A DNA stretch of 64,000 nucleotides, taken from positions 65,381 through 129,380 of the forward strand of contig PS015122.1 in assembly GCA_048213135.1 (NCBI GenBank). Reading direction: 5' to 3'. Position numbers and translations under genes: made by a program. Within the stretch, counting starts at the first letter, position 1, and every line of letters starts with the position of its first letter. The stretch comes from Reclinomonas americana ATCC 50394. Its lineage: Eukaryota. Below the pieces are notes generated by a model. That model did not search any database. It was not told the origin of the DNA and saw nothing but the letters and a program-made list of their open reading frames with translations. Below are positions 2,806 through 34,457 of the stretch, in pieces.

Positions 2806-3889
2806 TTACAAACCCAGTGCCGCAATCTTTTCCTCCACCTGCCGTGTCACCTCCGCCAGGTGCTGCTTGGACTCCTCCAGCGTCACCCGCGCCAGAGCCA
2901 CGTCTGGTGGCAAATCGAAAAACACTTTCAGCTGCGAATCGCGCGACGACAACTGCTGCTCCAGCTCCGCCAGCTCCTCGGCCAGGTGCACAATCGAACG
3001 GTGTGTTGTGTCCTTGTCGACGCCGCTCTCGCTGACTAGTTGCTGCGCACGACTGCGTCAGCCAACTCCCTCCCACCAATGTCTTCTTCATGGCTTTCGC
3101 TGTCACCCACCTTCAGATTCTGCACGGTGACCTCGTACTGCTGCTGCTTGCCTCGCAGGTAATCCAAGTTCTTTCTGCGCGTCTCCATGGTAGTCTCCAG
3201 ATCGTCGGTCAGCGACTCGATCTCCGCCGCCTGCGATCGCACGTGCGCCAACTCCTCGGTCGCCGTGTGTCGCGCAGCGGCCTGTAATGAGCGCTGCGTG
3301 GCGAGTTCGGCCACCTCTGCGTCCTCCACCTCGTCCATCTCCTGCAGCAGGTCGGAGAGTGCCACCAAGTACCTGCACTCACGAATCAGCAAACACGAGA
3401 CGAAACGCAGGGTGACGTGGGCGCTCCCGCGAAACGTGTTCACGCTGGCGTCCTTGACTTGCAGCGCCACTCCCAGTGCCGTGAGCGTCTCCAGATCGCG
3501 CAAGGCATCCTCGCTGAGATGCTCGTGTGGCACATACCCAGCGTGCTCAATCATGGTCGCCAGTCGCGTGCCTGTGATCGACGAGGATGAGGAAGGAGCA
3601 GAGGGACCCGATGACGATCGCGCAACTCTCTGCGCGATACTCGGCGGCCTTGTGTGCCAGATCCTCCATGATGATACTGTGCTCCGCACTCGCATGCTGC
3701 TGCCTTCGTTGCAGTTCGAGGAGAGCGGGAATCGTCACCTGTCGCCGATCACACAGGATGATGATGATGATCATTTCGCGCCAAAATGAACACAGCGCTC
3801 ACCTCGCTGTCCATCTCAAAGTCGGGAACTCGCTGCGTGTGCAGCACACTGCGCAGCCATTCGTTCACCTGTGCGATCTTGCCGTCCAT
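2806..3889 (-). CDS. HAUS1: HAUS augmin-like complex subunit 1
   Basis: N-terminus MDGKIAQVNEWLRSVLHTQRVPDFEMD, coiled-coil body, and the characteristic C-terminal LKVFFDLPPDVALARVTLEESKQHL. Confidence 0.85.
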
Positions 3890-10023: not shown

Positions 10024-11636
10024 CTATCTTACATCACCTTCTGCAAGCAACTGCTGTATCCTCTTTCCCATCTCACCCGGAACTTTCCACTCGCTATCGA
10101 GCCCGGCGCGTCGCTGCGTCTGCGCCACCAGCCGCGCCGCCGAGTCACCGTCAAACGACACCGACGAGCCTCGCCACAAGCGCGTGAAGAACTCGTTGTC
10201 CCACGTGTTGTGGCCGTGGTATGTGTACGTGTACAGCACTGGCGCGTCAATCACCAGGATGTTGTTGTGTGCCAGCAGCACCTCCACGGCTTCCTTGTCC
10301 TCGTCCCGATTCTGCGCCGGGTACGCGGGCATGCGGGAGCGCAAGCACAACAGCGAGTTCTCCCAGCCATGATTGCTGGTCACATGCAATGAGGGTGTCA
10401 CGTGAGGCTGCGCGAGCTGCAAACGGCGCAGCATGACGGCCGGTGCAGGCGTGGCAAGAACGCCCTCCTGCTGCTCCTGATGTTGGTTCACCATCAGCAG
10501 CGCGAACAGTTGCACGTGGATGCGATCGCGGTCGTACACATCGTCGTCGTCCCACACCATCACGTAGTCGCCCGAGGCCTCGCGTACGGAGAGGTTGCGC
10601 ATGTCGCCCAGTGTCCTCGAGCTTGCTAGCGCTTCCGTCGCTACCACCACGCGGATGCCGGCTTGTCGTTGCAGCTCGCTGTTGCCGACGACCACGTCCA
10701 ACACTCGTTGTAGGCCAGGTGCGCTCTCGGGCGAGGCCACGATCAACAGCTCTCGTGCCGCGTACGACTGCTGCATGTACATGTAGATGGCGCGCGCCGC
10801 AAAGGCCAACCGCTCCGGGCGTGAAGAGATCATCAGACAGGAAACACGCAGTTGCGTGCCATCAGTCGCGACCGGTGGCGGGAAGAAGAAGCCCGGGGAG
10901 GCGACGACACTGTCGTCTGTAGCCACGGGTGCCACCAGCACGTATGGAATATTGCTGAGTGCTGCACACAAAAAAACAGGAGTCAGCGCAGGGAGAGCAT
11001 GTGAACGCTGCGCGCAAGTGGCGGGAATGCAAACCATGGCCTTCGTCAACAGACTTGTAGCGACAAGGCACCGACATGGAGATGAGCAGCAGAGGCGCGT
11101 GTGTTGCTGCAGAGAACACGCACTCACCCACTCTCCAGAGATCTCGCCCAGTGACGGGCACAGCTCACTCGCTCGCTCCTGCTCCTCGCGCGAAGCCAGT
11201 GTCCAGATTCCTCTCTTCTTCGGAAGGAAACTGTTGATGTTGTTGCGCCGCATATCAGCAGCATCCACGCACTTGAAGAGGAGTACGTGGCCAGTCTCTT
11301 CATCCAGGGAGCACCACAGACGACCGCACGAGCGGAGAGCAGAAGGATGCGACAGGTCGGGGCATCGACAACTCCGTCGCTGTTTGCGCGCGAGTGTGTG
11401 ACAGGGTGAGAGTGAGGTATAATGAGTGTGTATGCACGTACTTCGTCGCCAGTTGAGGTGAAAGCGGAATACTTGGCTGCATGTGTGTGTGTTTTTGGTG
11501 AGTGACTGTGCGCACTGCAGAGTTCATCCAGTGAGTGCTGCAGCACATATGCATGCTCACCATTGAAACTCCACACATGGATGCACTGTGTGAGAAGCAC
11601 GAGTGCAATGAGGAGCGTGGTGAGACGCGTCCGCAT
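10024..11636 (-). CDS. GT2/GT-A glycosyltransferase, array copy 1 (signal peptide + Cys-rich domain + catalytic exon)
   Basis: RVSCLMIS..QQSY..ELLIV..TLGDMRNLSVREASGDYVMVWDDDDVY..WENSLLC..ED..LYTYTYHGHNTW; signal peptide MRTRLTTLLIALVLL. Confidence 0.9.
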
Positions 11637-11875
11637 GGACAAGAAAGTGAGAGCGAACAACATTCCAGTTCGTCAATGGCATTTTCGGAGGAGGACGCGC
11701 TGCTGCTGCATGCGCACGGGATGATATCGCACGCATGACATTTTTGTCGACTACCGCAGCAACTGCATCTTGCACCGTGTACAAAGGGGGCGGTGTGCCC
11801 AAGCCCTCCCTTTCCTCCACTTGTGCTCACTGGCACACTGCCTTTCTAGATCTACACGATCTTGCCAACAATACA

Positions 11876-13556
11876 CTATCTTTCATGATCATCACCGATC
11901 GCGAGTGCAACTCCTCCGGATCCGGATCCTGCAAGCACGAGCTGTATCCTCCTTCCCACCTCACCCGGAACCCCCCACTCGCTGTCGAGCCCCGCACGTC
12001 GTTGCGTCTGCGCCACCAATCGCGCCGCCGATTCACCGTCAAATGTCACCGACGCGCCTTGCCACAGACGAGCAAAGTGCTCGGCGCCCCACGTGTTGCG
12101 ACCGTGGTACATGTACGTGTACAGCACCGGTGTGTCGATCACCAGCACGGCGCTCTGCTTCAACAACTGCTCCACGGCGGCCATGTCCTCGCTGCGGTTC
12201 AGCGAGGGGTATGCGGGCATGTGCGAACGCAAGCACAGCAGCGAGTTCTCCCAGGGGCGGTTGAAGGTCACATACAGTGAGGGCGACACGTGAGGCTGTG
12301 CGAGCTGCTGGCGCCGTATAAAACAGGCCACTGCTGGTGCGCCCTCCTTCGGGCCTCGGTCACTGTTCACCGCCAGCAGCGAGAACAGTTGCACGTGGAT
12401 GCGGTCTCGACTATACACATCGTCGTCGTCCCACACCATCACGTAATCGCCCGAGGCCTCGCGCACCGACAGGTTGCGCATGTCGCCAAGTGTCTGCGAC
12501 TCGGCGTCTGTCATTACCACAACCCGGATGCCAGCTTGTCGTTGCAGCTCATCGTCACCGACCACCACCTCCAACACTCGTCGCAGGCCAGGCGCACTTT
12601 CGTGCGAGGCCACAATCAGCAGCTCTCGTGCCGCGTACGACTGCTGCGTGTACATGTAGATGGCGCGTGCCGCAAACGCCAGTCGCTCCGGGCGCGACGA
12701 GATCATCAGACAGGAGACACGCGGCTGTACGCTGTCGTCTCGGCCGTCGTCGGTTGCACTTGCAATCGTTGTTGCTGACAACAACGGTGGTGACAAGAGG
12801 CCCGAAGAAGCGACGCGTGAACGCGTGAGTACCGGCGTCACCAGCACAAACGGAATTTTGCTGAGCGCTGCATACGAAGTGAGTCAGCGAAGATCTAGAG
12901 ATAGATCGCAAAGTGAGGAGTGTAAACAAACCATCACCATCATCGATCAGCTGTGCAAACACCGACATGAGCACACCAGAGAGGCACGTGCGCTGCAGAG
13001 AACACGCACTCACCCACTCTCCAAAGCTCTCCGCCAGCGACGGGCACAACTCGTTCGCTCGCTGCTGCTCCTCGCGCGAAGCCAGTGCCCACACACCATT
13101 CTTCGTCTCAAACAAGTTGCTTCCGCGCCGCACATCGGCAGTGGTCACGACGCCGTCCACGCACTTGAAGAGGAGCATGCGTCCAGTCTCTTGGTCCAGG
13201 AAGCACCACAGCCGACCACACGCGCGGAGGGCAGAAGGAAGAGAGTGGTCGGGGCACCAGCAATATCGTCGCTGCGCATGCGCAGCGCAATGCATGTGAG
13301 ATGACGACAAGGGGAAGAGAGAGGGAGAGAGGGAGAGAGGGAGCGACGTGTGTGTGTGTGTGTGCACGCACGCACTTCCTCTCCTGCTGAAGTGAATGCT
13401 GGATACTTGTCTGTGCGTGAATGCATGTGTGAGAGGCCAATTATTGCAAGTGTGAGCTGTGTGCTCCGACAACACAGCATGTTCACCACTGAAACTCAGC
13501 GCACACTGTGCAAGAAGCACGACTGTGATGAGAAGTGCGATGAGATGCTTCCGCAT
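11876..13556 (-). CDS. GT2 glycosyltransferase, array copy 2
   Basis: Same motifs and exon layout; start MRKHLIALLITVVLLAQC; 19-nt microexon at 12932-12950. Confidence 0.9.
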
Positions 13557-13963
13557 ACACAACGACGCAAAAATGCGGACATACTTGACGATTTTTCACA
13601 GTAGACTCCTCGCTGCGTTTCGACAAACAGGGCAACTCAGAACCGACGATTTCGTGACAACAAGCTGCGACTGGTGGTGTATGCAACGCCACCACTTGCA
13701 CACGTGCACAAACACAAGCCTGCATTGAGGTGTAATGGACACTGAACTAGAAGAGAGACTATGCGGGTTTGACTTCGAGATGCATGCATTGGAGCTGTGC
13801 AGTAAGCGAACTTGTGGTGAGTGACCGCACTCCTCCTCCCTTGTGTGGCACGGAGACGGGAAAGTAAGAATGAGATGCATCCGCGCCCTCATTCACCATC
13901 CTCTCCTCGCGCGCCTTCTCTTGCTCGGCTTCCCTGTCCCTCAACACACTGCATGCACGTTTA

Positions 13964-15698
13964 CTATCTTTCTGCAAGCAGCACCCGCTGTATCCTCTCT
14001 CCCACCTCACCCGGAACCCGCCACTCACTGTCGAGACCGGCGCGTCGCTGCGTCTGTGCCACCAGCCGCGCCCCCGACTCGCCGCCAAATGTCACCGACG
14101 AACCGTGCCACAAGCTGTTGAAGTGCTCGTTGCCCCAGGTGTTACGGCCGTGGTACACGTACGTGTACAGCGCTGGCGCGTCGATCACCAACACGGCGCT
14201 CTGTGCCCACAGCTGCTCAGCGACTGCCGCGTCCTCGCTCCGATTCAGCGACGGATAGATCGGCATGTGCGAGCGCAGGCACAGCAGCGAGTTCTCCCAG
14301 CCCTGCCGATTATGGGTCACGTGCAGCGAGGGCGACACGTGAGGCTCCGAGAGTTGCAATCGGCGCAGCATGACAACCACTGCTGGTGCGGCGAGGACGC
14401 CTTCCTGCTGCTGTTGATATTCGTTCACCGCCAACAACGCGGAGAGTTGTACGTGGATGCGATCGCGGTCGTACACATCGTCATCGTCCCACACCATCAC
14501 GTAATCGCCGGTGGCCTCACGCACCGATAGGTTGCGCATGTCGCCAAGTGTCTGCGACTCGGCGTCGGCCATAACCACGACACGGATGCCGGCTTGTTGC
14601 TGCAGCTCGTCGTCGCCCACCACCACCTCCAACACTCGTCGCAAGCCTGGCGCACTCTCGTGCGAGGCCACAATCAGCAGCTCCCGCTTCGGGTACGACT
14701 GTTGCATGTACATGTGTATGGCGCGCGCCGCAAACGCCAGTCGCTGTCGGTGCGACGAGATCATCAGGCAGGAGACATGCGGCGGCTGTTTGTTGTCGGC
14801 ACCCGCCATCGACAGTGGTGGTGTGAGGAAGCCAGAATATGCCGACGCCGGGCCGGTAGGCGTTGGGGCCGACAAGACGTATACGTACGGAATGTTGCTG
14901 AGCGCTGTACGAGGGTCAGCGCATGGTCTTCGACAGGGAGCGTGAATTCTCACACAAACCATGACCGTCGTCGATCAACTGTGTGCGAGAGAGGGGGCAG
15001 CAAGCAAACACGACTTGTGCGGTGAGTACCAGAGACGCATGCATTACAAAGAGTACACACGCACCCACTCTCCAAAACTCTCCGCCAGCAAAGGGCACAA
15101 CTCGCTCGCTCGCAACTGCTCCTCGCGCGACGCCAGTGTCCACACACCATTCTTCGTAACAAACAAAACACTTCATTCACCACATTCCAGTAATGCGACA
15201 AATGTCCACAAATCCCTTGCCGACGATGACCACAACTGATTGCCACGGCGCCGCCTGTCAGCCGCAGTGACATTGCCGTCGACGCACTTGAAGAGAAGCA
15301 TGCGTCCAGTCTCTCGATCCAGGGAGCACCACAGTCGGCCACAAGAACGCAAAGCAGACGGATGAGACTGGTCGGGGCACATGCAATATCGTCGCTGTTT
15401 GCAGCAATGCACGCATTAGGAGGGAGAGTGCATGCGAGAGAGAGAGAGAGAGAGACGAGTGTGTATGCACGCACTTCCTCTCCGGCTGAGGTGAATGCAG
15501 GATACTTGGCTGTGTGTGTGTGAGAGAGAGAGCGAGAGAGAGAGAGAGTGCATGTGAGTGAAACATTGATATCGCAATTGGTTGTGTGTGCACAGCACAG
15601 CACAGCATCCACTCACCACTGAAACTGACCACGTGAGTACACTGTGCGAGAAGCACAACTGCGATGAGAAGCGCACTGAGCAGCAGCGTCTGCCTCAT
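13964..15698 (-). CDS. GT2 glycosyltransferase, array copy 3 (72-nt insertion with an in-frame stop in the Cys-rich exon; possibly disrupted)
   Basis: Catalytic exon is intact; start MRQTLLLSALLIAVVLL; insertion at 15164-15235 is absent from the sister copies. Confidence 0.8.
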
Positions 15699-16093
15699 TG
15701 TGTGCTCACGGCCAATGTGAACGCGTGCTGTTCTTCTTGCGTGACACGACGTGCATGCGTGACCGACGAAGTGGCCGCTGCGAAGTGCACAAAGGCGCGT
15801 GTGGTAGCAAATGAACTCGATGCATCCGCTTGCAAACTGGCTGTACGCACATGTGAACAGCAGTTTGCTCCCAACGTCGAAGTCGATCAATAGCAACAAA
15901 GCGTGCAGCAGTTGGTGCGCATGCGCGCTCCTCATGCACATTCTCAGAAAGACAAACCAACACTATCCTCAACCCCCTCTCTAACTCTATGTGTCCCTCT
16001 CCCCACGAACGCAGGGTGCTCTGTCTTCCGGTATCGATCACGTACTAAAACTGCATGCAGGTTCACTCTTGTGACGTCTACAGCGCAAGCACA

Positions 16094-17704
16094 TCAGGTC
16101 CGCTGTATCCTCTCTCCCATCTCACCCGGAATCGCCCACTCGCGGTCGAGCCCCGCACGTCTCTGCGTCTGTGCCACCAGCCGCGATGCCGACTCACCGC
16201 CAAACGTCACCGACGCGCCTTGCCACAAGCTTGCGAAGTGCTCGTTGCCCCAGGTGTTGCGACCGTGGTACATGTACGTGTACAGCGCTGGCGCGTCGAT
16301 CACCAGCACGGCGCTGTGCGCCCATAGCTGCACAGCGACTGCCGCGTCCTCGCTCCGATTCAGCGACGGGTAGACCGGCATGTGCGAGCGCAAGCACAGC
16401 AGTGAGTTCTCCCATGCATGATTGTGCAGCACGTGCAGCAAGGGTGACACGTGAGGCTGCGAGAGTTGCAATCGGCGCAGCATGACGGCCACTGCTGGTG
16501 CGGCGAAGACGCCTTCCTGCTGCTGGTGATATTCGTTCACCGCCAACAACGAGAACAGTTGTATGTGGATGCGATCGCGGTCGTACACATCGTCGTCGTC
16601 CCACACCATCACGTAATCGCCAGTGGCCTCACGTACGGAGAGGTTGCGCATGTCGCCAAGTGTCTGCGACTCGGCGTCGGCCATAACCACGACACGGATG
16701 CCGGCTTGTTGCTGCTGTCCGAAATCGCCCACCACCACCTCCAGCACGCGCGCCAGGCCTGGTGCACTCTCGTGCGAGGCCACAATCACCAGCTCTCGCG
16801 CCGGGTACGACTGCTGCATGTACATGTGGATGGCACGCGCCGCAAAGGCCAGTCTATCCGGGCGCGACGAGATCATGAGACAGGAGACACGCGGCGGCTG
16901 CAGCTGTTTGTTGCCTACGTCCGCCATCGACGGTGGTGGTGGTGGTGTGAGGAAGCCAGAAGACGCCGTTGCCGGACCGGTAGGTGTCGGAGTGGACAAG
17001 ACGTATGGAATGTTGCTGAGAGCTGCACAGGAGTCATTAGCGCAGGGATAGCAAGAGAGCGGGGGAGTGCGCAAGAGACACAAACCATGACCGTTTTCGA
17101 TCAACTGCGCGAACAATGGCAACAAGCACGACTTGTGCGGTGAGTACCAGAGACGCGCGCATTACCAGGAGTACACACGCACCCACTCTCCAAAGCTCTC
17201 CGCCAGCAAAGGGCACAACTCGCTCGCTCGCAACTGCTCCTCGCGCGACGCCAGTGTCCACACACCATTCTTCGACACAAACTGATTGCCACGGCGCCGT
17301 CTGTCAGCCGCAGTGACATCGCCGTCGACGCACTTGAAGAGAAGTATGCGTCCAGTCTGTTGATCCAGGGAGCACCACAGTCGGCCGCAAGAACGGAAAG
17401 CAGACGGATGAGTTTGGTCGGGGCACATGCAATATCGTCGCTGTTTGCAATGCACGCATTAGGAGGGAGAGTGCATGTGTGTGTGAGAGAGAGAGATGTG
17501 TGTGTGTGTGTGTGTGTGTGTGGATATACGCACTTCCTCTCCTGCAGAGGTGAATCCGGGGTACTTGGCTGTGTGTGTGTGTGTGTGTGAGCAAGTGGCT
17601 TCTGCGCGCTTGTGTGCATCGCGCTCACCACTGAAACTCAGCACATTGATGCACTGTGTGAGAAGCACGAGTGTAATGAGAAGCGCGAGGAGCAGCACTC
17701 GCAT
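16094..17704 (-). CDS. GT2 glycosyltransferase, array copy 4
   Basis: Same motifs; start MRVLLLALLITLVLL; slightly shorter C-terminus (RIQRT*). Confidence 0.9.
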
Positions 17705-17903
17705 GAGTGAAGAAAATATGTCGACGAACTTTTCATACTTTCCATTTCGTGCAATAATGCAAGCTGCTGAGCTTGTTTTAGTACATCATTGGTGAGAAGA
17801 GAAAGCTTGTTGAACAACGTTATCGGACGGCACTGCGACAAGAGGTGCAGCCTGCCTCTCTTTCTCTGCAGGCCAAGTAACACTGGCTGCACATGCACGT
17901 TCA

Positions 17904-19551
17904 CTATCTTTCATCGCCTTTTTCTGCAAGCAGCACCTGCTGTATCCTCTCTCCCACCTCACCCGGAACCCGCCACTCACTGTCGAGTCCAGCACGTCGT
18001 TGCGTCTGTGCCACCAGCCGCGCCGCCGGCTCACCGTCAAACGTCACCGACGCGCCTTGCCACAAGCTTGCGAAGTGCTCGTTGCCCCAGGTGTTACGGC
18101 CGTGGTACATGTACGTGTACAGCGCTGGCGCGTCAATCACCAACACGGCGCTCTGTGCCCACAGCTGCTCAGCGGCTGCCGCGTCCTCGCTCCGATTCAG
18201 CGACGGGTAGACCGGCATGTGCGAGCGCAAGCACAGCAGTGAGTTCTGCCAGCCATGATTGCTGGTAACATGCAGCGAGGATGGCACGTGAAGCTGCGAG
18301 AGTTGCAATCGGCGCAGCATGACGGCCGGTGCTGGTGCGGCGAGGACGCCTTCCTGCTGCTGCTGTTGATATTCGTTCACCGCCAACAGCGCGGAGAGTT
18401 GTATGTGGATGCGATCGCGGTCGTACACATCGTCGTCGTCCCACACCATCACGTAATCGCCGGTGGCCTCACGCACCGATAGGTTGCGCATGTCGCCAAG
18501 TGTCTGCGACTCGGCGTCGGCCATAACCACGACACGGATGCTGGCTTGTTGTTGCTGTCCGAAATCACCCACCACCACCTCCAACATGCGCGCCAGGCCT
18601 GGCGCACTCTCGTGCGAGGCCACAATCACCAGCTCTCGCGCCGGGTACGACTGCTGCGTGTACATGTGGATGGCACGCGCCGCAAAGGCCAGTCTATCCG
18701 GGCGCGACGAGATCATGAGACAGGAGACACGCGGCGGCTGTTTGTTGCCTACGTCCGCCATCGACGGTTGTGGTGGTGGTGTGAAGAAGCCAGAAGATGC
18801 CGACACCGGGACGGTAGGTGTCGGGGTCGACAAGACGTATGGAATGTTGCTGAGAGCTGCACAGGAGTCATTAGCGCAGGGATAGCAAGAGAGCGGGGGA
18901 ATGCGCAAGAGACACAAACCATGACCGTTTTCGATCAGCTGCGCGAACAATGGCAACAAGCACGACTTGTGCGGTGAGTACCAGAGACGCGCGCATTACC
19001 AGGAGTACACACGCACCCACTCTCCAAAGCTCTCCGCCAGCAAAGGGCACAACTCGCTCGCTCGCAACTGCTCCTCGCGCGACGCCAGTGTCCACACACC
19101 ATTCTTCGAAACAAACTGATTGCCACGGCGCCGCCTGTCAGCCGCAGTGACATCGCCGTCGACGCACTTGAAGAGAAGTATGCGTCCAGTCTGTTGATCC
19201 AGGGAGCACCACAGTCGGCCGCAAGAACGGAAAGCAGACGGATGAGTTNNNNNNNNNNNNNNNNNNNNTGGTCGGGGCACATGCAATATCGTCGCTGCGC
19301 AATGCACGCATTAGGAGGGAGAGTGCATGTGTGTGTGTGAGAGAGAGATGGGTGTGTGTGTGTGTGTGGATACACGCACTTCCTCTCCTGCAGAGGTGAA
19401 TCCGGGGTACTTGGCTGTGTGTGTGTGTGTGAGCAAGTGGCTTCTGCGCGCTTGTGTGCATCGCAGCGCGCTCACCACTGAAGCTCAGCACATTGATGCA
19501 CTGTGTGAGAAGCACGAGTGTAATGAGAAGCGCGAGGAGCAGCACTCGCAT
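17904..19551 (-). CDS. GT2 glycosyltransferase, array copy 5
   Basis: Same motifs; 5' half nearly identical to copy 4; WENS is WQNS here; small N gap in the Cys-rich exon. Confidence 0.9.
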
Positions 19552-19867
19552 GAGTGAAGAAAANNNNNNNNNNNNNNNNNNNNNNNNNNNNNNNNNNNNN
19601 NNNNNNNNNNNNNNNNNNNNNNNNNNNNNNNNNNNNNNNNNNNNNNNNNNNNNNNNNNNNNNNNNNNTATGTCGACGAACTTTTTCTGACCGACGTACTT
19701 TCCTCCATTTCGTGCAATAATGCAAGCTGTTGCAGCTTGCTTTAATACATCATTGGTGAGAAGAGAAAGCTTGTTGAGCAAGGTTATCGGACGGCACTGC
19801 GACAAGAGGTGCAGCCTGCCTCTCTTTCTCTGCAGGCCAAGTAACACTGGCTGCACATGCACGTTCA

Positions 19868-21190
19868 CTATCTTTCATCACCGACTCCTGCGAGCACGAG
19901 CTGTATCCTCTTTCCCATCTCGCCCGGAACCGCCCAGTCGCTGTCGAGCCCGGCACGTCGCTGCGTCTGTGCCACCAGCCGCACCGCCGACCCACCGTCA
20001 AATGTCACCGACGAGCCTTGCCACAGGCTCGTAAAGTGTCGACTGTCCCACGTGTTGCGACCGTGGTACATGTACGTGTACAGCGCCGGCGTGTCAATCA
20101 ACAGCACGGTGCTCCGTGCCAACAGCTGCTCCACCGCTCGCCTGTCCTCGTTGCGATTCAGCGAGGCATACACAGGAATGTGTGAACGCAGGCACAGCAG
20201 CGAGTTCTCCCATGCACGATTGTGCAACACATGCAACGAGGGTGTCACGTGAGGCTGCACGAGTTGCAGGCGGTGCAAGATAGAGGCCACGACAGGCGCT
20301 GCTGATGCACCCTCCTTTTGCTCTTGCTCTCGTTTCACCATCAACAGCGAGAACAGTTGCACGACGATCCGATCTCGGTCGTACACATCGTCGTCGTCCC
20401 ACACCATCACGTAATCGCCCGAGGCCTCGCGCACCGATAGGTTGCGCATGTCGCCAAGTGTCTGCGACTCGGCGTCGGCCATAACCACGACACGGATGCT
20501 GGCTTGTTGCTGCTGTCCGAAATCGCCCACCACCACCTCCAGCACGCGCGCCAGGCCTGGTGCACTCTCGTGCGAGGCCACAATCACCAGCTCTCGCGCC
20601 GGGTACGACTGCTGCATGTACACGTGGATGGCACGCGCCGCAAAGGCCAGTCTATCCGGGCGCGACGAGATCATGAGACAGGAGACACGCGGCGGCTGTT
20701 TGTTGCCTACGTCCGCCATGGTGTGAAGAAGCCAGAAGATGCCGACACCGGGACGGTAGGTGTCGGGGTCGACAAGACGTATGGAATGTTGCTGAGAGCT
20801 GCACAGGAGTCATTAGCGCAGGGATAGCAAGAGAGCGGGGGAATGCGCAAGAGACACAAACCATGACCGTTTTCGATCAGCTGCGCGAACAATGGCAACA
20901 AGCACGACTTGTGCGGTGAGTACCAGAGACGCGCGCATTACCAGGAGTACACACGCACCCACTCTCCAAAGCTCTCCGCCAGCAAAGGGCACAACTCGCT
21001 CGCTCGCAACTGCTCCTCGCGCGACGCCAGTGTCCACACACCATTCTTCGAAACAAACTGATTGCCACGGCGCCGCCTGTCGGCTGCAGTGACATCGCCG
21101 TCGACGCACTTGAAGAGAAGTATGCGTCCAGTCTCTCGATCCAGGGAGCACCACAGTCGGCCGCAAGAACGGAAAGCAGACGGATGAGTG
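19868..21190 (-). pseudogene. GT2 array copy 6: chimeric and frameshifted; 5' exons hidden in the N gap at 21191-21210
   Basis: 16-nt deletion at about 20719 relative to copy 5 breaks the frame just upstream of the catalytic domain; 5' half matches copies 4/5 and 3' half matches copy 7. Confidence 0.65.
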
Positions 21191-21401
21191 NNNNNNNNNN
21201 NNNNNNNNNNTGTATGTCGGCGAACTTTTCATCCTTTCCATTTCGTGCAATAATGCAAGCTGCTGCAGTACATCATTGGTGAAGAGAAAGCTTGTTGAGC
21301 AACGTTATCGGACGGCACTGCGACAAGAGGTGCAGCCTGCCTCTCTCTCTCTCTCTCTCTCTGCAGCAGGCCAAGTAACACTGGATGCACACGCACGTTC
21401 A

Positions 21402-22971
21402 CTATCTTTCATCACCGACTCCTGCAAGCACGAGCTGTATCCTCTTTCCCATCTCGCCCGGAACCGCCCAGTCGCTGTCGAGCCCGGCACGTCGCTGCGT
21501 CTGTGCCACCAGCCGCACCGCCGACCCACCGTCAAATGTCACCGACGAGCCTCGCCACAGGCTCGTAAAATGTCGACTGTCCCACGTGTTGCGACCGTGG
21601 TACATGTACGTGTACAGCGCCGGCGCGTCAATCAACAGCACGGTGCTCCGTGCCAACAGTTGCTCCACAGCTCGCCTGTCCTCGTTCCGATTCAGCGAGG
21701 CATACACAGGAATATGTGAACGCAGGCACAGCAGCGAGTTCTCCCATGCACGATTGTGCAACACATGCAACGAGGGTGTCACGTGAGGCTGCACGAGTTG
21801 CAGGCGGTGCAAGATAGAGGCCACGACAGGCGCTGCTGATGCACCCTCCTTTTGCTCTTGCTCTCGTTTCACCATCAACAGCGAGAACAGTTGCACGACG
21901 ATCCGATCTCGGTCGTACACATCGTCGTCGTCCCACACCATCACGTAATCGCCCGAGGCCTCGCGCACAGAGAGGTTGCGCATGTCGCCGAGTGTTCGCG
22001 ACGTGGCGTCTGTCATTTCCACGACGCGGATGCCAGCTTGTCGTTGCAACTCGTGCCTGCCGACCACCACCTCCAGCACTCGTCGCAGACCGCGTGCACT
22101 CTCGTGCGAGGCCACGATCAGCAGCTCGCGCTCCGGGTACGACTGCTGCATGTACATGTAGATGGCGCGCGCCGCAAACGCCAGTCGCTCCGGGCGCGAC
22201 GAGATCATCAGGCAGGAGACACGCGGCAGCACATTGCCGATTTCGTCCGTGATCGACAACTGCGGTGAGAGGAAGCCGCCAGAGGAGGACCTGCCGTTCT
22301 CGTGCGCAGACGCTCGTGCCTCCAACACGTACGGGATGTTGGTGAGTGCTGCACACGAGTCAGCGCGCGTAAAAGACAACACGCAAGCGAGCATGCAAAC
22401 CATGACCATCCTCGATCAACTGACAAGCATGACATGAGAGGCGCACAAAAAGGGGGGTCACTGCACACGCACTCACCCACTCTGCAAAGCTCTCCACCAA
22501 CGAAGGACACAGCTCGCTCACTCGCGCCTGCTCCTCGCGCGAGGCCAGCATCCAATGACCATTTTTCGGCAGAAATCGATTTCCTCGACGCCGCACTTCG
22601 GCCGCTGTCACTGCGCCGGCGACGCACTTGAAGAGAAGCGTGCTTCCACTCTGTCGATCCAGCGCGCACCAACGCGCCTGGCAGGCCCGGACAGCTGCCG
22701 GATCCGGCGGCGATTGGTCTGGGCACCAGCAGAATCGACGCTGTTTACTTTGACGTGAGAGACATGAAGGGAAAGAGAGCGTGCGCATGTGTCTGCGCAT
22801 ACCTCCTCGCCAGTGGACGTGAATGTGTGGTGATTTGCTGTGTGTGTGACAATGAGTTATGATCAGTCTGCGCGTGTGTGTCGCATTGTGTTGCTCACCG
22901 CTGAAGCTCAGCACCACGATGCAGTGTGTGAGGAGCACGACTGTGATGAGCAGCAGCAGCAACACTCGCAT
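21402..22971 (-). CDS. GT2 glycosyltransferase, array copy 7 (most divergent N-terminal part)
   Basis: Start MRVLLLLLITVVLLTHC; RFCWCPDQ..CQARWCALD..FKCVAG..ELCP; intact catalytic exon. Confidence 0.9.
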
Positions 22972-23208: not shown

Positions 23209-23415
23209 ATGTGTGTATGTCTGTGTGTGTGTTGTGCATGTAAGGAGGGCGAGGTAGGAAAGAGATAGAGAGAGTGGAATGGACAAGTGGCGCCAAATGT
23301 GTATGTGAGTGAGAGACAGAGCGTATTCACCTGCACTCTGCATGTATGCACTGTTGTTTAGCGAGGGATGTAATGTGCATTCATTGACTTTCATCTCGCA
23401 GTGTCAAGCGACGCG

Positions 23416-24569
23416 ATGGCGAAGTCGCTGCCGACCTTTTCCGAGTTGCATTCCCCGCTCTCCTCCTNNNNNNNNNNNNNNNNNNNNNNNNNNNNNNNNN
23501 NNNNNNNNNNNACACTGTACTTTTCTCGCGCAAGTCCACATTCATTGCGCGTGCTGTTGCAGCCGACACGCCTGGCGTGGCGCTTGCCATATGTGGCCGC
23601 TCAGTTCTCGATGCCACCTGCCACGCTGCCGGCCTCGGCGGGTGTGGACACGAAGCGGCCGTATCTGTGGCTGCGCGTGCACATTTTCGTGAACCACCAG
23701 CCGCCGCGGTTTGCACTGTCGCCGGCTTTGCGGGTGCTGGTTCCTGGCATTGACCACGGCTCCAAGGCCGACATTGTGGAGGCTGTGTGGACGCACCTCA
23801 AGCAGACGCAGCAAGTGGACTTGACCGGTGACGGAGACTGTGTGATCCAGGTGGCCAGCGAAGCATTCCAGCAGCTGTTTGGTGGCCGCACCGAGATTCC
23901 CGTGTCGCGGCTGGTGGCTGAGGTTGAGAGGCACCTCACGCCACTGCCGCCCGTCACCATGGAGCTGTGGTATTCGTGAGTCGCTGTTGGGGGTGTTGTC
24001 TGCGCACTGTGGCGGCTGACCTGTGAGTGTTTTTGCCAGGCACTCGATGAATGCGCCCGACAGCAAGAAGCTGGAGACCAGCATCTACACGACGGGTGTG
24101 TCGACCGTGGAGGACGATCCGCGAACGGAGCAGGAGGTACGCATATGCAACCGCCGGCCTGCCCGTACGTGTTAGCTAATGTTTGTGATGTGCCGCAGAT
24201 TCGCGAGCTGAATCGACAGATTGCCGCCGACATTGAGACCATTACGCAGCGACGGCAGCGGCGAGCGTTCCTGTCGCAGTTTGCCGAGTCACCGGTGCAT
24301 GTGTTGGAGAACTTTGTGGTGCAACAATCACGTAACTTGCAGGTTTTGTGGTGGCGCGTGGGGTGGAAGGAGGCGTTGCAAGTGTCTGGCTGACCGTGGT
24401 GTGTTTCTTGTTTTGACAGGCTTTCCAGGATCGCGAGAGAGAGCTGATGCGCCGGAGTGCACTGTTCACGAAGCCGTGGATCATGGACGCTGTCTCGCAC
24501 TACGCTGCCGTTGAGCGGCAAAAGCGGAAGCAGCAGCAGCAGCAGCCACCACCACCACCACCGCAATAG
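23416..24569 (+). CDS. SWIB/MDM2-domain protein, SMARCD/BAF60-like (N gap near the 5' end)
   Basis: HQPPRFALSPAL..SKADIVEAVWTHLK..FQQLFG..HLTPLPPV (SWIB domain); RRAFLSQFAESPV..FVVQQSRNL; RRSALFTKPWIMDAVSHY, all typical of the BAF60 C-terminal half. Confidence 0.85.
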
Positions 24570-32113: not shown

Positions 32114-34457
32114 ATGGCGAGCGATGGCCAGCAGTTGTCGCTGGCATGGCTGGTCATGATGGCCATGCCCTCTGTGCTGATTGTTATCGCGGTGGTCTCC
32201 CTCGTTGCCACCATTGTCAAAGTGGTGCTCTCTGTGCTGCGCACTGGCAGCAGAGCAAGCAGGAGACATCGACCACCAGCACCGATTGATCGCCCAGCTC
32301 TCCTTGGTGAGCATGCGCACACACATGAGAGAGAGAGAGAGAGAGAATGATGTGCATCTCACTGTGCCACACAGCGCGGTATGGTCTGTCGGCGGAACGC
32401 GGTCTGCTGCCTGTCGCATGCAATGCATCGCTGCCTGCTGAGTTTGCTGCGTGGGAGCGCTTGTCGGAGGAGTTGCCACGACTGAATCGCGAAGGACGAC
32501 TGCGTGACTATGTCGACCAGCACTTGCCGGTGCTTGAGGCCACGTCGGAGTTGCTGGAGAGCGATGAGCACGCACGCAGGTCGTTCATTGTGCTGGGACA
32601 GGTGTGCCGTGTTCTTCCTTTCTGCATGCGACGACTGGTGGCGGCTCATGCATGCACGCCCTCGCAGTTCGTGCACTCGTATGTCAATGGAGCACAGGCT
32701 GCGTGGGGGCTGGTCGGAGGCACCACTGCGGCGACGGAGCGAGTGCTGGTCGTTCCACCGCAGCTGGCCGTGCCTTGGAATCAGGTGGCGTGTCACTTGG
32801 GTGTGCCGACGGCGCTGACATCGGCACTGGACTTGTGGAACTGGCGACTGGTGGATCCGGCGGGCGCGTTCGAGCCGCACAACCTGACGTGCCTGTCGAC
32901 GATGACGGGCACAGAGTCGGAGGTCGCCTTTCACATGATTCCGTGCAGCATGCAGCAGGCGGCGGCGCATCTCATGTTGGATCTGGTGACGGCGCCTGAG
33001 CATCTGGTGGCCACGCAAAACGCCGTGGCGTTGACGTCGTTGCTGTGCGAGCTGACGGCAGTGCTTGTCGAGTGCAAGAGGCTCTTTGACACGGTGGACG
33101 AGCTGGTGAAACCCGACATTTTTTACTCGGTGTACCGCCCGCTGCTGTCGGGTTGGTGGCCGAGCGGCCTGGTGCTGCGTGGGGTGCCGCCAGACGCACC
33201 ACTGGCTCCGCTGTGCGAGCGTCGCGGGGATGGCACGGTGGTGTCCGCGGCCAAGGGCCCGAGTGCGGGACAGAGCACGCTGATTGCGCTGATCGATGCG
33301 TTCCTCGGGGTCGCGCATCACGGCGAGGCCAGTGAGTTTCAGAGCGAGATGTGTCGGTTCTACATGCCGCACTGGCATCGCCAGTTGTTGGTAGATTTTG
33401 CGGAGAGTGTGAGGGAGAATGGCGCGGTCAAGGTGCGTGGGAGGGAAAGGGGGAGAAGAGAGAAGGGAAAGGGGAAGGGGGAAGTGGGAGAGAGAGATAT
33501 CTTCAACGTGATATCGTCTTCCGCTCTTCCTTCGCGACGCTTTAAGAAGTGTGGTGGCAGTGAATGTTGTTGTTCTAGAAGGAGACACCGATCGGGTTGC
33601 CTTGGGGCTCATTGCAGCGGGGAAAGAACGACAAAAGAGAGAAAAATGCAGCGAGACGATTGCGTCTGAGCACAGCAGTGTGGTGGCAGCGAATGTTGTT
33701 GTCTGCGAAGGAGACACAAATCGGGTTGCCTTGCAGCTGTGGCGTTGCAGCGGAGAGAGAAGAGAGAGAGATAATTGCAGCAAGACGATTGCGTCTGAGC
33801 GCAGCATATGAGATTCAGGTCGGGTTACTCGGGGCTGTGAGTAGAAGAGAGACTGCTGGTTCCACCTTTGTGCAACCATCGTGCAGCAGGCTTGTAGCGG
33901 CGGTGGCGGAGAGACAACTGCAGCATGAGTTTCTCCTTGCGACTCTTTCAGCGGCCTGGAATGCTGTTGTTGGAGAATGAGGTTGTGAGAGAGACTGCTT
34001 CAGTTTTCCACCTTTGTGGTGGGCAGTGTCAGCAGCGTCACATTGGAAGAGTGAGCAACTATCATGGAGTAAGCTCGCTACGTGGCGGAGTCCTCCTTCG
34101 CGTCTCTCGAATGTGGGTGGCAGACAGCGACTGCTTTGAGAAGGAGATGCAGATCGGGTCACCTTGTGACTGTGGGGAGAGAGAGCTTTCCCGCTGTTGG
34201 ATAGTACTCACCTCTTTCTGTGTGTGACTCCGCTGACACCAAGTGCACCGATCACACAGGACCTCGTCAGCACCATCGGCAACGAGAGCCTGGAGAAGGC
34301 CTACCAGCAGTGTGTGGCTGCGCTGGCCGACCTGCGCGTCTTCCACTTGGGTGTTGCCACACGGTACCTGCGCATGGCTTCGCACGGCACTGGCGCGAGT
34401 GACTTTCGCCACATGCTACGCGAGGCCATTGACGGCACACGCGAATCTGTTAAATGA
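32114..34457 (+). CDS. IDO: Indoleamine 2,3-dioxygenase family heme enzyme with an N-terminal hydrophobic helix
   Basis: YGLSAERGLLP, VPPQLAVPW, LWNWR, FYSVYRPLLSGW, GPSAGQS, YMPHWHR, LRVFHLGVATRY (proximal His) and GTGAS. Confidence 0.9.
33548..33806. repeat. Two tandem copies of a 129-bp unit in the long IDO intron
   Basis: agtgtggtggcag..gaaggagacac..atcgggttgcctt..gacgattgcgtctgagc starts at 33548 and again at 33677. Confidence 0.85.

Follow-up and report, generated by a model that had tools for sequence, protein, structure and literature searches.

A tandem array of predicted secretory-pathway GT2-type glycosyltransferase genes in Reclinomonas americana

Golgi glycosyltransferases usually consist of a membrane anchor, a stem and a catalytic domain of the GT-A fold. 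Polypeptide GalNAc-transferases (CAZy family GT27) are secretory enzymes that combine a GT-A domain matching the Pfam family PF00535 with an extra non-catalytic module, a C-terminal ricin-type lectin domain, and that have a DxH motif. In the Golgi glycosyltransferase arrays of kinetoplastids, secretory glycosyltransferases were amplified in tandem within one lineage. The solved enzymes of glycosyltransferase family 2 (GT2), including K4 chondroitin polymerase of E. coli (2z86/2z87), heparosan synthase 2 of Pasteurella (8vh7/8viw) and SpsA of B. subtilis (1qg8), are cytoplasmic bacterial polysaccharide enzymes. Here, a stretch of 64 kb from Reclinomonas americana ATCC 50394 (contig PS015122.1, positions 65,381 to 129,380), called the window in the following, was analysed, in which a tandem array of GT2-type genes is located between positions 10024 and 22971. 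The results rest on the assembled sequence and on comparisons with it. Probably, the array is a family of secretory-pathway glycosyltransferases that arose when a domesticated GT2 domain of the bacterial type was moved to the secretory pathway and amplified, and the copies have been kept by purifying selection. The array resembles those of the kinetoplastids in its tandem amplification, but a different glycosyltransferase family is involved. In contrast to the GT27 enzymes, the predicted proteins have a DDDD motif and an N-terminal orphan Cys-rich module, and they have no lectin domain.

A repeat search revealed seven direct-repeat units between 10.0 and 23.0 kb of the window, all on the minus strand, with start-to-start spacings of 1888, 2046, 2115, 1837, 1961 and 1534 nt. 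Seven loci, on the minus strand only, were also found by tblastn with the catalytic exon as well as with the Cys-rich exon of copy 4, and the codon pattern for the motif WDDDD occurred seven times on the minus strand of the window and zero times on the plus strand. A preliminary description of the stretch had proposed seven co-oriented paralogs, 1.5–2.1 kb apart, which share one exon plan. This was verified, and the proposed limits turned out to be exact, running from the stop codon of copy 1 (10024) to the ATG of copy 7 (22971). The copy number also stood, but two points had been overlooked, namely the assembly gaps that affect copies 5 and 6 and the interrupted reading frames of copies 3 and 6 as assembled.

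Exon models were built by aligning the seven units and anchoring them on conserved splice sites. Exon 1 (e1, 70–103 nt) contains the ATG, encodes a hydrophobic N-terminus and ends in phase 1. Exon 2 (e2) is exactly 35 nt long and encodes (A/D)KYPAFTSAGEE and variants thereof. Exon 3 (e3, 252–264 nt, longer in copy 3) contains six Cys codons, exon 4 (e4) has exactly 19 nt, and exon 5 (e5, 929–992 nt) is a single catalytic exon that carries WDDDD and continues to the stop codon. The plan is complete, with an open coding sequence (CDS), in four copies, visible in copies 3 and 5, and partial in copy 6:

Copy 1, 10024–11663, minus strand: intact, five exons, CDS of 1347 nt; e1 11561–11663 (with a second in-frame ATG nine codons in), e2 11442–11476, e3 11128–11379, e4 11035–11053, e5 10024–10961.
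Copy 2, 11876–13556, minus strand: intact, CDS of 1374 nt; e1 13487–13556, e2 13376–13410, e3 13014–13271, e4 12932–12950, e5 11876–12867.
Copy 3, 13964–15698, minus strand: e3 with 72 extra nt that include an in-frame stop codon; e1 15617–15698, e2 15475–15509, e3 15065–15394, e4 14960–14978, e5 13964–14904.
Copy 4, 16094–17704, minus strand: intact, used as reference, CDS of 1317 nt; e1 17629–17704 (predicted signal peptide), e2 17534–17568, e3 17183–17440 (six-Cys module), e4 17086–17104, e5 16094–17022 (stem and GT2 domain).
Copy 5, 17904–19551, minus strand: five exons visible, a gap of 20 N (19249–19268) within e3, a gap of 104 N (19564–19667) just upstream of the ATG; e4 18920–18938.
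Copy 6, 19868–21190, minus strand: partial and hybrid, with part of e3, e4 (20862–20880) and e5; e1, e2 and the start of e3 are hidden behind a gap of 20 N (21191–21210), and a 16-nt deletion in the CCA-rich, stem-coding stretch of e5 causes a frameshift.
Copy 7, 21402–22971, minus strand: intact, CDS of 1338 nt; e1 22899–22971, e2 22803–22837, e3 22477–22740, e4 22401–22419, e5 21402–22348.

Genes of the window, which has about 58% G+C and 14 runs of N, contain short GT...AG introns. In copies 1, 2, 3, 4 and 7, each of the 20 introns is of the GT...AG type, with lengths of 52–107 nt, the lengths of e2 and e4 are fixed in all five of these copies, and the mean pairwise identity was 0.64–0.75 for exons versus 0.43–0.51 for introns. 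The exon plan is supported by the intron borders, the fixed lengths of the small exons and the higher conservation of exons.

The intron after e4 opens with GTTTG(T/C) in all seven copies, a weak-looking donor beside a micro-exon; the remaining three introns have donors of the types GTGAG, GTGCG, GTACG and GTATG. In several copies introns 1 and 2, which surround the 35-nt exon, consist mostly of (CA)n/(CT)n tracts of variable length (13300–13440, 15420–15560, 17460–17600 and 19300–19440), and these tracts are a likely cause of the copy-to-copy length variation and of the assembly gaps.

The predicted proteins have about 440–457 amino acids (aa) and are composed of an N-terminal signal sequence, the short and conserved segment AKYPAFTSAGEE, a six-Cys module, a stem and the GT2 domain. 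The catalytic exons were compared with Pfam, as the preliminary description had suggested. PF00535 (Glycos_transf_2) matched all seven exons (E 2e-7 to 4e-4), and five of the matches exceeded the gathering score, 23.3 bits (25.1–31.6 bits; copy 2 25.8 bits, copy 4 27.8 bits); apart from PF13641 and PF10111 no other Pfam family matched. For an analysis of conservation, the seven exons were aligned with 47 short single-domain homologues, of which six came from a word-indexed cluster search and 41 from 150 listed HMMER matches (54 sequences in total). Ten columns were invariant, namely Q70, G122, R125, W140, D141–D144, Y247 and N255, and all are thus kept in each of the seven copies; the stretch W140–D144 was present in 54 of 54 sequences. 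E224, D225, H252 and G253 were conserved to at least 90%, and E224–D225 is found in all seven copies. An AlphaFold2 (AF2) model of e5 of copy 4, based on this alignment, had a predicted local distance difference test score (pLDDT) of 92.4 and a predicted template modelling score (pTM) of 0.91.

When the model was compared with the PDB using Foldseek, all top matches were GT2 enzymes of the GT-A fold with a probability of 1.00. The TMq values were 0.49–0.54 for heparosan synthase 2 (PmHS2), SpsA, a Leptospira glycosyltransferase and K4 chondroitin polymerase (K4CP), and 0.43–0.47 for AvpGT and TarP/TarS. In a search of PDB sequences with the alignment profile, K4 chondroitin polymerase was found with an E-value of 4e-20, and its D-S-D-D aligned with D141–D144. 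From the Pfam matches, the model with its structural neighbours and this alignment, the catalytic exon is predicted to encode a GT2-type domain of the GT-A fold with an intact DxD motif, and the class that had been proposed earlier, GT2 with a DxD for sugar and metal binding, was thus supported. An inverting, metal-dependent mechanism would follow from what is known about the GT2 family. The GT-A fold and the DxD position are common to this domain and K4 chondroitin polymerase, heparosan synthase 2 and SpsA (profile E-values 4e-20 to 6e-12, TMq 0.50–0.54), but the structurally aligned identity to the solved enzymes is only 14–18%, and their substrates are not transferable to the array.

More specific assignments were rejected. 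In NCBIfam, weak sub-threshold matches were obtained to WcaA, TuaG and AglG only, and the best score against the named bacterial GT2 equivalogs (WcaA, TuaG, AglG, EpsD/E, PglI) was 28.6 bits versus cut-offs of 370–496. A polypeptide GalNAc-transferase was excluded because the Pfam scan found no lectin domain and the motif is DDDD instead of DxH.

The product of e1 has the composition of a signal peptide in all six readable copies, as had been proposed before. It starts with one to three residues including Arg or Lys (MR, MRK, MRQ), continues with a Leu/Ile/Val core 12–14 residues long (best 12-aa Kyte–Doolittle mean 2.7–3.6) and ends in a polar stretch with S-F-S in five of the six readable copies (S-F-N in copy 1). 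A phase-1 intron lies exactly at S-F-S. A cleaved peptide and a lumenal location of the protein would fit this composition.

The product of e3 has about 86 aa, and its six Cys residues are invariant wherever the exon has been assembled. Its ratio of nonsynonymous to synonymous divergence (dN/dS) was 0.20–0.46 in six of six pairs, which indicates constraint. Similar sequences were searched for in several collections. In Pfam, no family was found at E<=10 for three of four copies, and the fourth yielded a noise match to RET_CLD1 (E 0.087). Among longer proteins there were 51 candidates, none of which reached E<=0.01, and the ESM Atlas contained no usable match. With a profile of the module, none of 280 GT2 homologues was matched (lowest E-value 1.1), and none of 122 pattern matches in JGI metagenome contigs was confirmed. 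Judged by sequence comparison, the six-Cys module is therefore an orphan that is matchless in all collections searched. An AF2 model from the seven paralogue sequences was unreliable (pLDDT 53.1). The first roughly 40 residues encoded by e5 are rich in Pro, Ser and Thr and vary more than any other part of the protein, with 75–80% of the positions varying, a dN of up to 0.65 and a dN/dS of 0.19–0.75 in pairs without copy 6. This composition and variability fit a stem region.

The C-termini are similar in six of the seven copies, which end with (D/A/V)(E/R)R before the stop codon: GDVR in copy 1 (10024–10035), DDHER in copy 2 (11876–11890), LAER in copy 3 (13964–13972) and GDER in copies 5 (17904–17915), 6 (19868–19879) and 7 (21402–21413). 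Copy 4 ends earlier via an indel and has a shorter C-terminal tail than the others. The conserved acidic-Arg C-terminus differs from the classical KDEL/HDEL signal.

Relatives of the catalytic domain were searched for by HMMER among 1.84 billion cluster representatives. At E<=1e-3, 1e-10 and 1e-30 there were 2183, 960 and 31 representatives, respectively, and the 150 listed matches, from which the identities were taken, were 31–44% identical, with none listed above 44%. Only seven proteins, with at most 38% identity, were obtained when 5.8 billion clusters were searched by a word index. PF00535 was present in all 20 top HMMER matches that were scanned; it was accompanied by an OCH1-like Gly_transf_sug domain in eight of them and by an Anp1 domain in four, and others had GT28/EryCIII or GT41-TPR domains; due to these added domains they were regarded as bacterial multi-glycosyltransferase fusions. 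The organism names on the matches were all bacterial (Bauldia, Caulobacteraceae, Caulobacterales, Pseudolabrys, Thermodesulfobacteriota and Verrucomicrobiota). In bacterial and archaeal contigs (one genome per species), 518 of 548 candidate stretches among the matches listed encoded relatives; the best 80 of these at least 518 were 31–39% identical and came largely from Streptomyces, Azospirillum, Chloroflexota, Acidobacteriota and cyanobacteria. These sequence similarities place the catalytic domain in a large, uncharacterised GT2 subfamily that is dominated by bacteria.

All invariant residues of the copies are shared by this subfamily, which has the signature (Q/V)WDDDD ... ED ... Y-x-Y-x-x-HG-x-NT and a predicted GT-A fold and is 31–44% identical in the catalytic domain. 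Its members are stand-alone proteins of about 250–300 aa or the middle domain of fusions of several glycosyltransferases, and none has a curated name. Unlike the genes of the array, they have no signal peptide, no Cys-rich module and no introns, and they also lack a 12-residue insertion at about 161–175 and a conserved C-terminal segment, LVAQTQRRAGLD. The architecture of signal peptide, six-Cys module and GT2 domain was found in no other organism of the collections searched.

The OCH1-like (Gly_transf_sug) and Anp1 families are known mainly for their part in the synthesis of mannan in the fungal Golgi. In Streptomyces hygroscopicus (locus L003, 5101–7758) and Azospirillum oryzae (locus L008, 5176–8760) the related GT2 is the middle domain of an arrangement Gly_transf_sug-GT2-(GT4)-Anp1. 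Such bacterial Gly_transf_sug-GT2-Anp1 fusion proteins appear to be uncharacterised.

Viral contigs, a small number of them from giant-virus bins, gave 371 pattern matches, of which 290 encoded relatives; the best 80 of these were 23–36% identical. In a quick maximum likelihood tree, six copies of the array (all but the hybrid copy 6) were combined with 24 bacterial and 13 viral loci, drawn from the best 80 of each group. The copies formed one clade with an SH-aLRT support of 100 among bacterial and viral sequences. A giant-virus origin was not supported, as the viral relatives were no closer than the bacterial ones and the clade lay outside the viral groups. Close relatives of the catalytic exon of copy 4 were not found in metagenome contigs (28 pattern matches, none confirmed). 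A literature search retrieved no paper that joins the WDDDD motif and a glycosyltransferase, and a broader search for GT2 tandem arrays or horizontal gene transfer in protists retrieved none on this family in the parts of the sources that were accessible.

Bacterial contamination was ruled out, because the genes have spliceosomal introns and are positioned between eukaryotic genes. The catalytic domain is encoded in one intron-free exon of 0.93–0.99 kb, and the preceding approximately 130 codons are cut by four introns. Together with the bacterial identity of all named relatives, this points to the acquisition of a prokaryote-type GT2. Based on these comparisons, a single acquisition of a bacterial-type GT2, followed by exon additions and tandem amplification, is the most likely history.

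The array recombines, as copy 6 is a crossover hybrid of copies 5 and 7. Copy 6 shares 98.4% identity with copy 5 in the 5′ part (12 mismatches and 16 gap columns) and 98.6% identity with copy 7 in the 3′ part (7 mismatches). In sliding windows the identity shifted from 100% with copy 5 to 99–100% with copy 7, and the breakpoint was mapped to 20429–20435 on the minus strand, just downstream, in gene orientation, of the stretch coding for WDDDDVYDRDR. The maximum chi-square was 252.5 at 338 informative sites, a value that none of 2000 permutations reached. Read in the direction of the genes, copy 7 is followed by the hybrid copy 6 and then by copy 5, as predicted by a single unequal crossover between copies 5 and 7. 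It was thus verified that the family is recombining, as had been put forward before. Significant mosaic signals were also obtained for copies 3, 4 and 5 (0 of 2000 permutations each); between copies 4 and 5, for instance, the identity drops from 97.5% in the 5′ part to 92.8% in the 3′ part.

The copies are under purifying selection. In pairwise Nei–Gojobori estimates, which a few selected sites could escape, the dN/dS of the catalytic core was 0.20–0.37 in all 21 pairs and thus never near 1. The preliminary description had regarded the array as a candidate locus of glycan diversification, and this was not supported: the values in all pairs indicate purifying selection, and the positions that vary among the paralogues mostly vary throughout the bacterial family as well. 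Most of the segments that differ among the paralogues are ones in which the bacterial family also varies or has no counterpart; the clearest is the lineage-specific insertion described above. An exception is segment 221–240, with a variability of 0.70 among the paralogues and moderate conservation in the bacterial family (0.47). By contrast, the paralogues agree in segment 281–300, which is not conserved in the bacterial sequences.

The array had also been described as embedded among housekeeping genes, supposedly single-copy, and its flanks indeed carry unrelated eukaryotic genes. It is adjoined by two loci with matches below the cut-offs, and genes for MORN, indoleamine 2,3-dioxygenase (IDO) and IPP-2 proteins follow further along:

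3036–3734, minus strand: open reading frame (ORF) similar to HAUS1, 38.2 bits, just under the cut-off of 40 bits.
23374–23979, plus strand: weak match to the SWIB domain, 22.2 bits, under the cut-off of 25 bits.

A long ORF at 32329–33669 on the plus strand, about 10 kb from the array, matched indoleamine 2,3-dioxygenase (PF01231) with an E-value of 1.1e-49.

Under the favoured reading of a re-targeted and amplified GT2 family, the domain would have been acquired once, the signal peptide and the Cys-rich module would have been added, unequal crossing-over would then have amplified the gene, and purifying selection would keep the copies. A cleavable signal peptide, encoded exactly by e1, would direct the protein to the secretory pathway. 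By homology, a nucleotide sugar and a divalent metal would be bound via the DxD within W140-DDDD144. By analogy, the conserved E224–D225 region could act as base, and the sugar would be transferred with inversion onto an acceptor in the lumen of the endoplasmic reticulum (ER) or the Golgi.

Several points weigh against this reading. The five-exon plan is predicted from the sequence, and so is its splicing. The uncharged run at the N-terminus is 24 aa long in copies 4 and 5, where the signal may be an uncleaved anchor. The PF00535 scores of copy 1 (20.8 bits) and copy 7 (22.0 bits) were just under the cut-off. As assembled, copy 3 has an in-frame stop codon, copy 6 a frameshift, and copy 5 is interrupted by a gap. 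With respect to a bacterial origin, only a minority of the database matches carry organism names, the stem of the clade is long (0.92) with no supported sister group, and sparse sampling of the relatives of this protist could hide vertical inheritance.

Three alternative explanations were weighed. The proteins could be type II membrane enzymes of the Golgi, neither soluble nor secreted, with an uncleaved signal anchor and with the Cys-rich module and the Pro/Ser/Thr-rich stretch as stem. The uncharged N-terminal runs, which reach 19–24 aa in copies 2–5, would suit an anchor, and anchor, stem and GT-A domain would give the usual Golgi layout. However, the strongly hydrophobic core comprises only 12–14 residues and is followed by polar T, Q, C, H and N, and five of the six readable copies have a small-x-small site, S-F-S, at the exon boundary, so that membrane anchoring is regarded as rather unlikely. 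Part of the array could also be decaying or be a product of the assembly, with copies 3 and 6 as pseudogenes, a functional family of four or five genes, and copy 6, or the similarity of copies 4, 5 and 6, created by mis-assembly around the gaps. The in-frame stop of copy 3, the 16-nt frameshift in the CCA-rich tract of copy 6 and the three N gaps in copies 5 and 6 argue in this direction, as does the fact that copies 5 and 6 are 100% identical across seven sliding windows in a row, or about 600 columns of the alignment. Yet copies 1, 2, 3, 4, 5 and 7 are separated by a synonymous divergence (dS) of 0.15–0.59 in the catalytic core and thus are not assembly-made. Copy 6 has seven private substitutions, and its matching halves differ at 12 sites from copy 5 and at 7 sites from copy 7, so that it is probably a genuine seventh unit. 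The 72-nt insert of copy 3 may be an extra intron, because the removal of GT...AG intervals of 54–66 nt that end at 15171 (e.g., 15171–15233) restores the frame, or it may be a disabling insertion. Taken together, decay or mis-assembly is an unlikely explanation. The array appears to comprise at least six genes, seven as assembled, with copy 6 lying between gaps, and due to the three N gaps around copies 5 and 6 the structure of these two is only partly fixed by the assembly.

Alternatively, positive selection could have produced differing donor or acceptor specificities and thereby a varied surface glycan. Seven diverged copies (e5 protein 71–89% identical to copy 4; copy 1 is the most divergent with 71%), their mosaic evolution, the lineage-specific variable insertion and the variability of segments 181–200 and 221–240 in the C-terminal, acceptor-side half are in accord with such adaptation. 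The low dN/dS of the core in all pairs is not, and most of the variable segments, save 221–240, are poorly conserved across the bacterial family too, which makes this the distinctly less probable course. The re-targeted GT2 family can be extended to a reading in which a cytoplasmic bacterial or virus-borne GT2 was captured once, re-targeted by the exon-level gain of a signal peptide, with the phase-1 intron at the predicted cleavage site, and by a newly evolved six-Cys module, and amplified to paralogues with different acceptors that build a lineage-specific extracellular or cyst-wall glycan. In its entirety, this extended version is rather improbable.

What is novel is the architecture, i.e., the combination of signal peptide, orphan six-Cys module and bacterial-type GT2 in a tandem array; the enzyme class is known. 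The array is a lineage-specific and fairly ordinary expansion of that class, and no long-standing open question is touched. Tandem expansions of glycosyltransferases are common, and the value of the finding is therefore mainly descriptive until substrate and location are known. If the favoured reading is true, the array would be a clean example of a eukaryote that made a prokaryote-type cytoplasmic glycosyltransferase secretory by adding an exon for a signal peptide and a disulfide module of orphan type. The growth of a small gene family by tandem duplication and unequal crossing-over would be illustrated as well, and the array would provide concrete candidate enzymes for a lineage-specific glycan of the Reclinomonas americana lineage.

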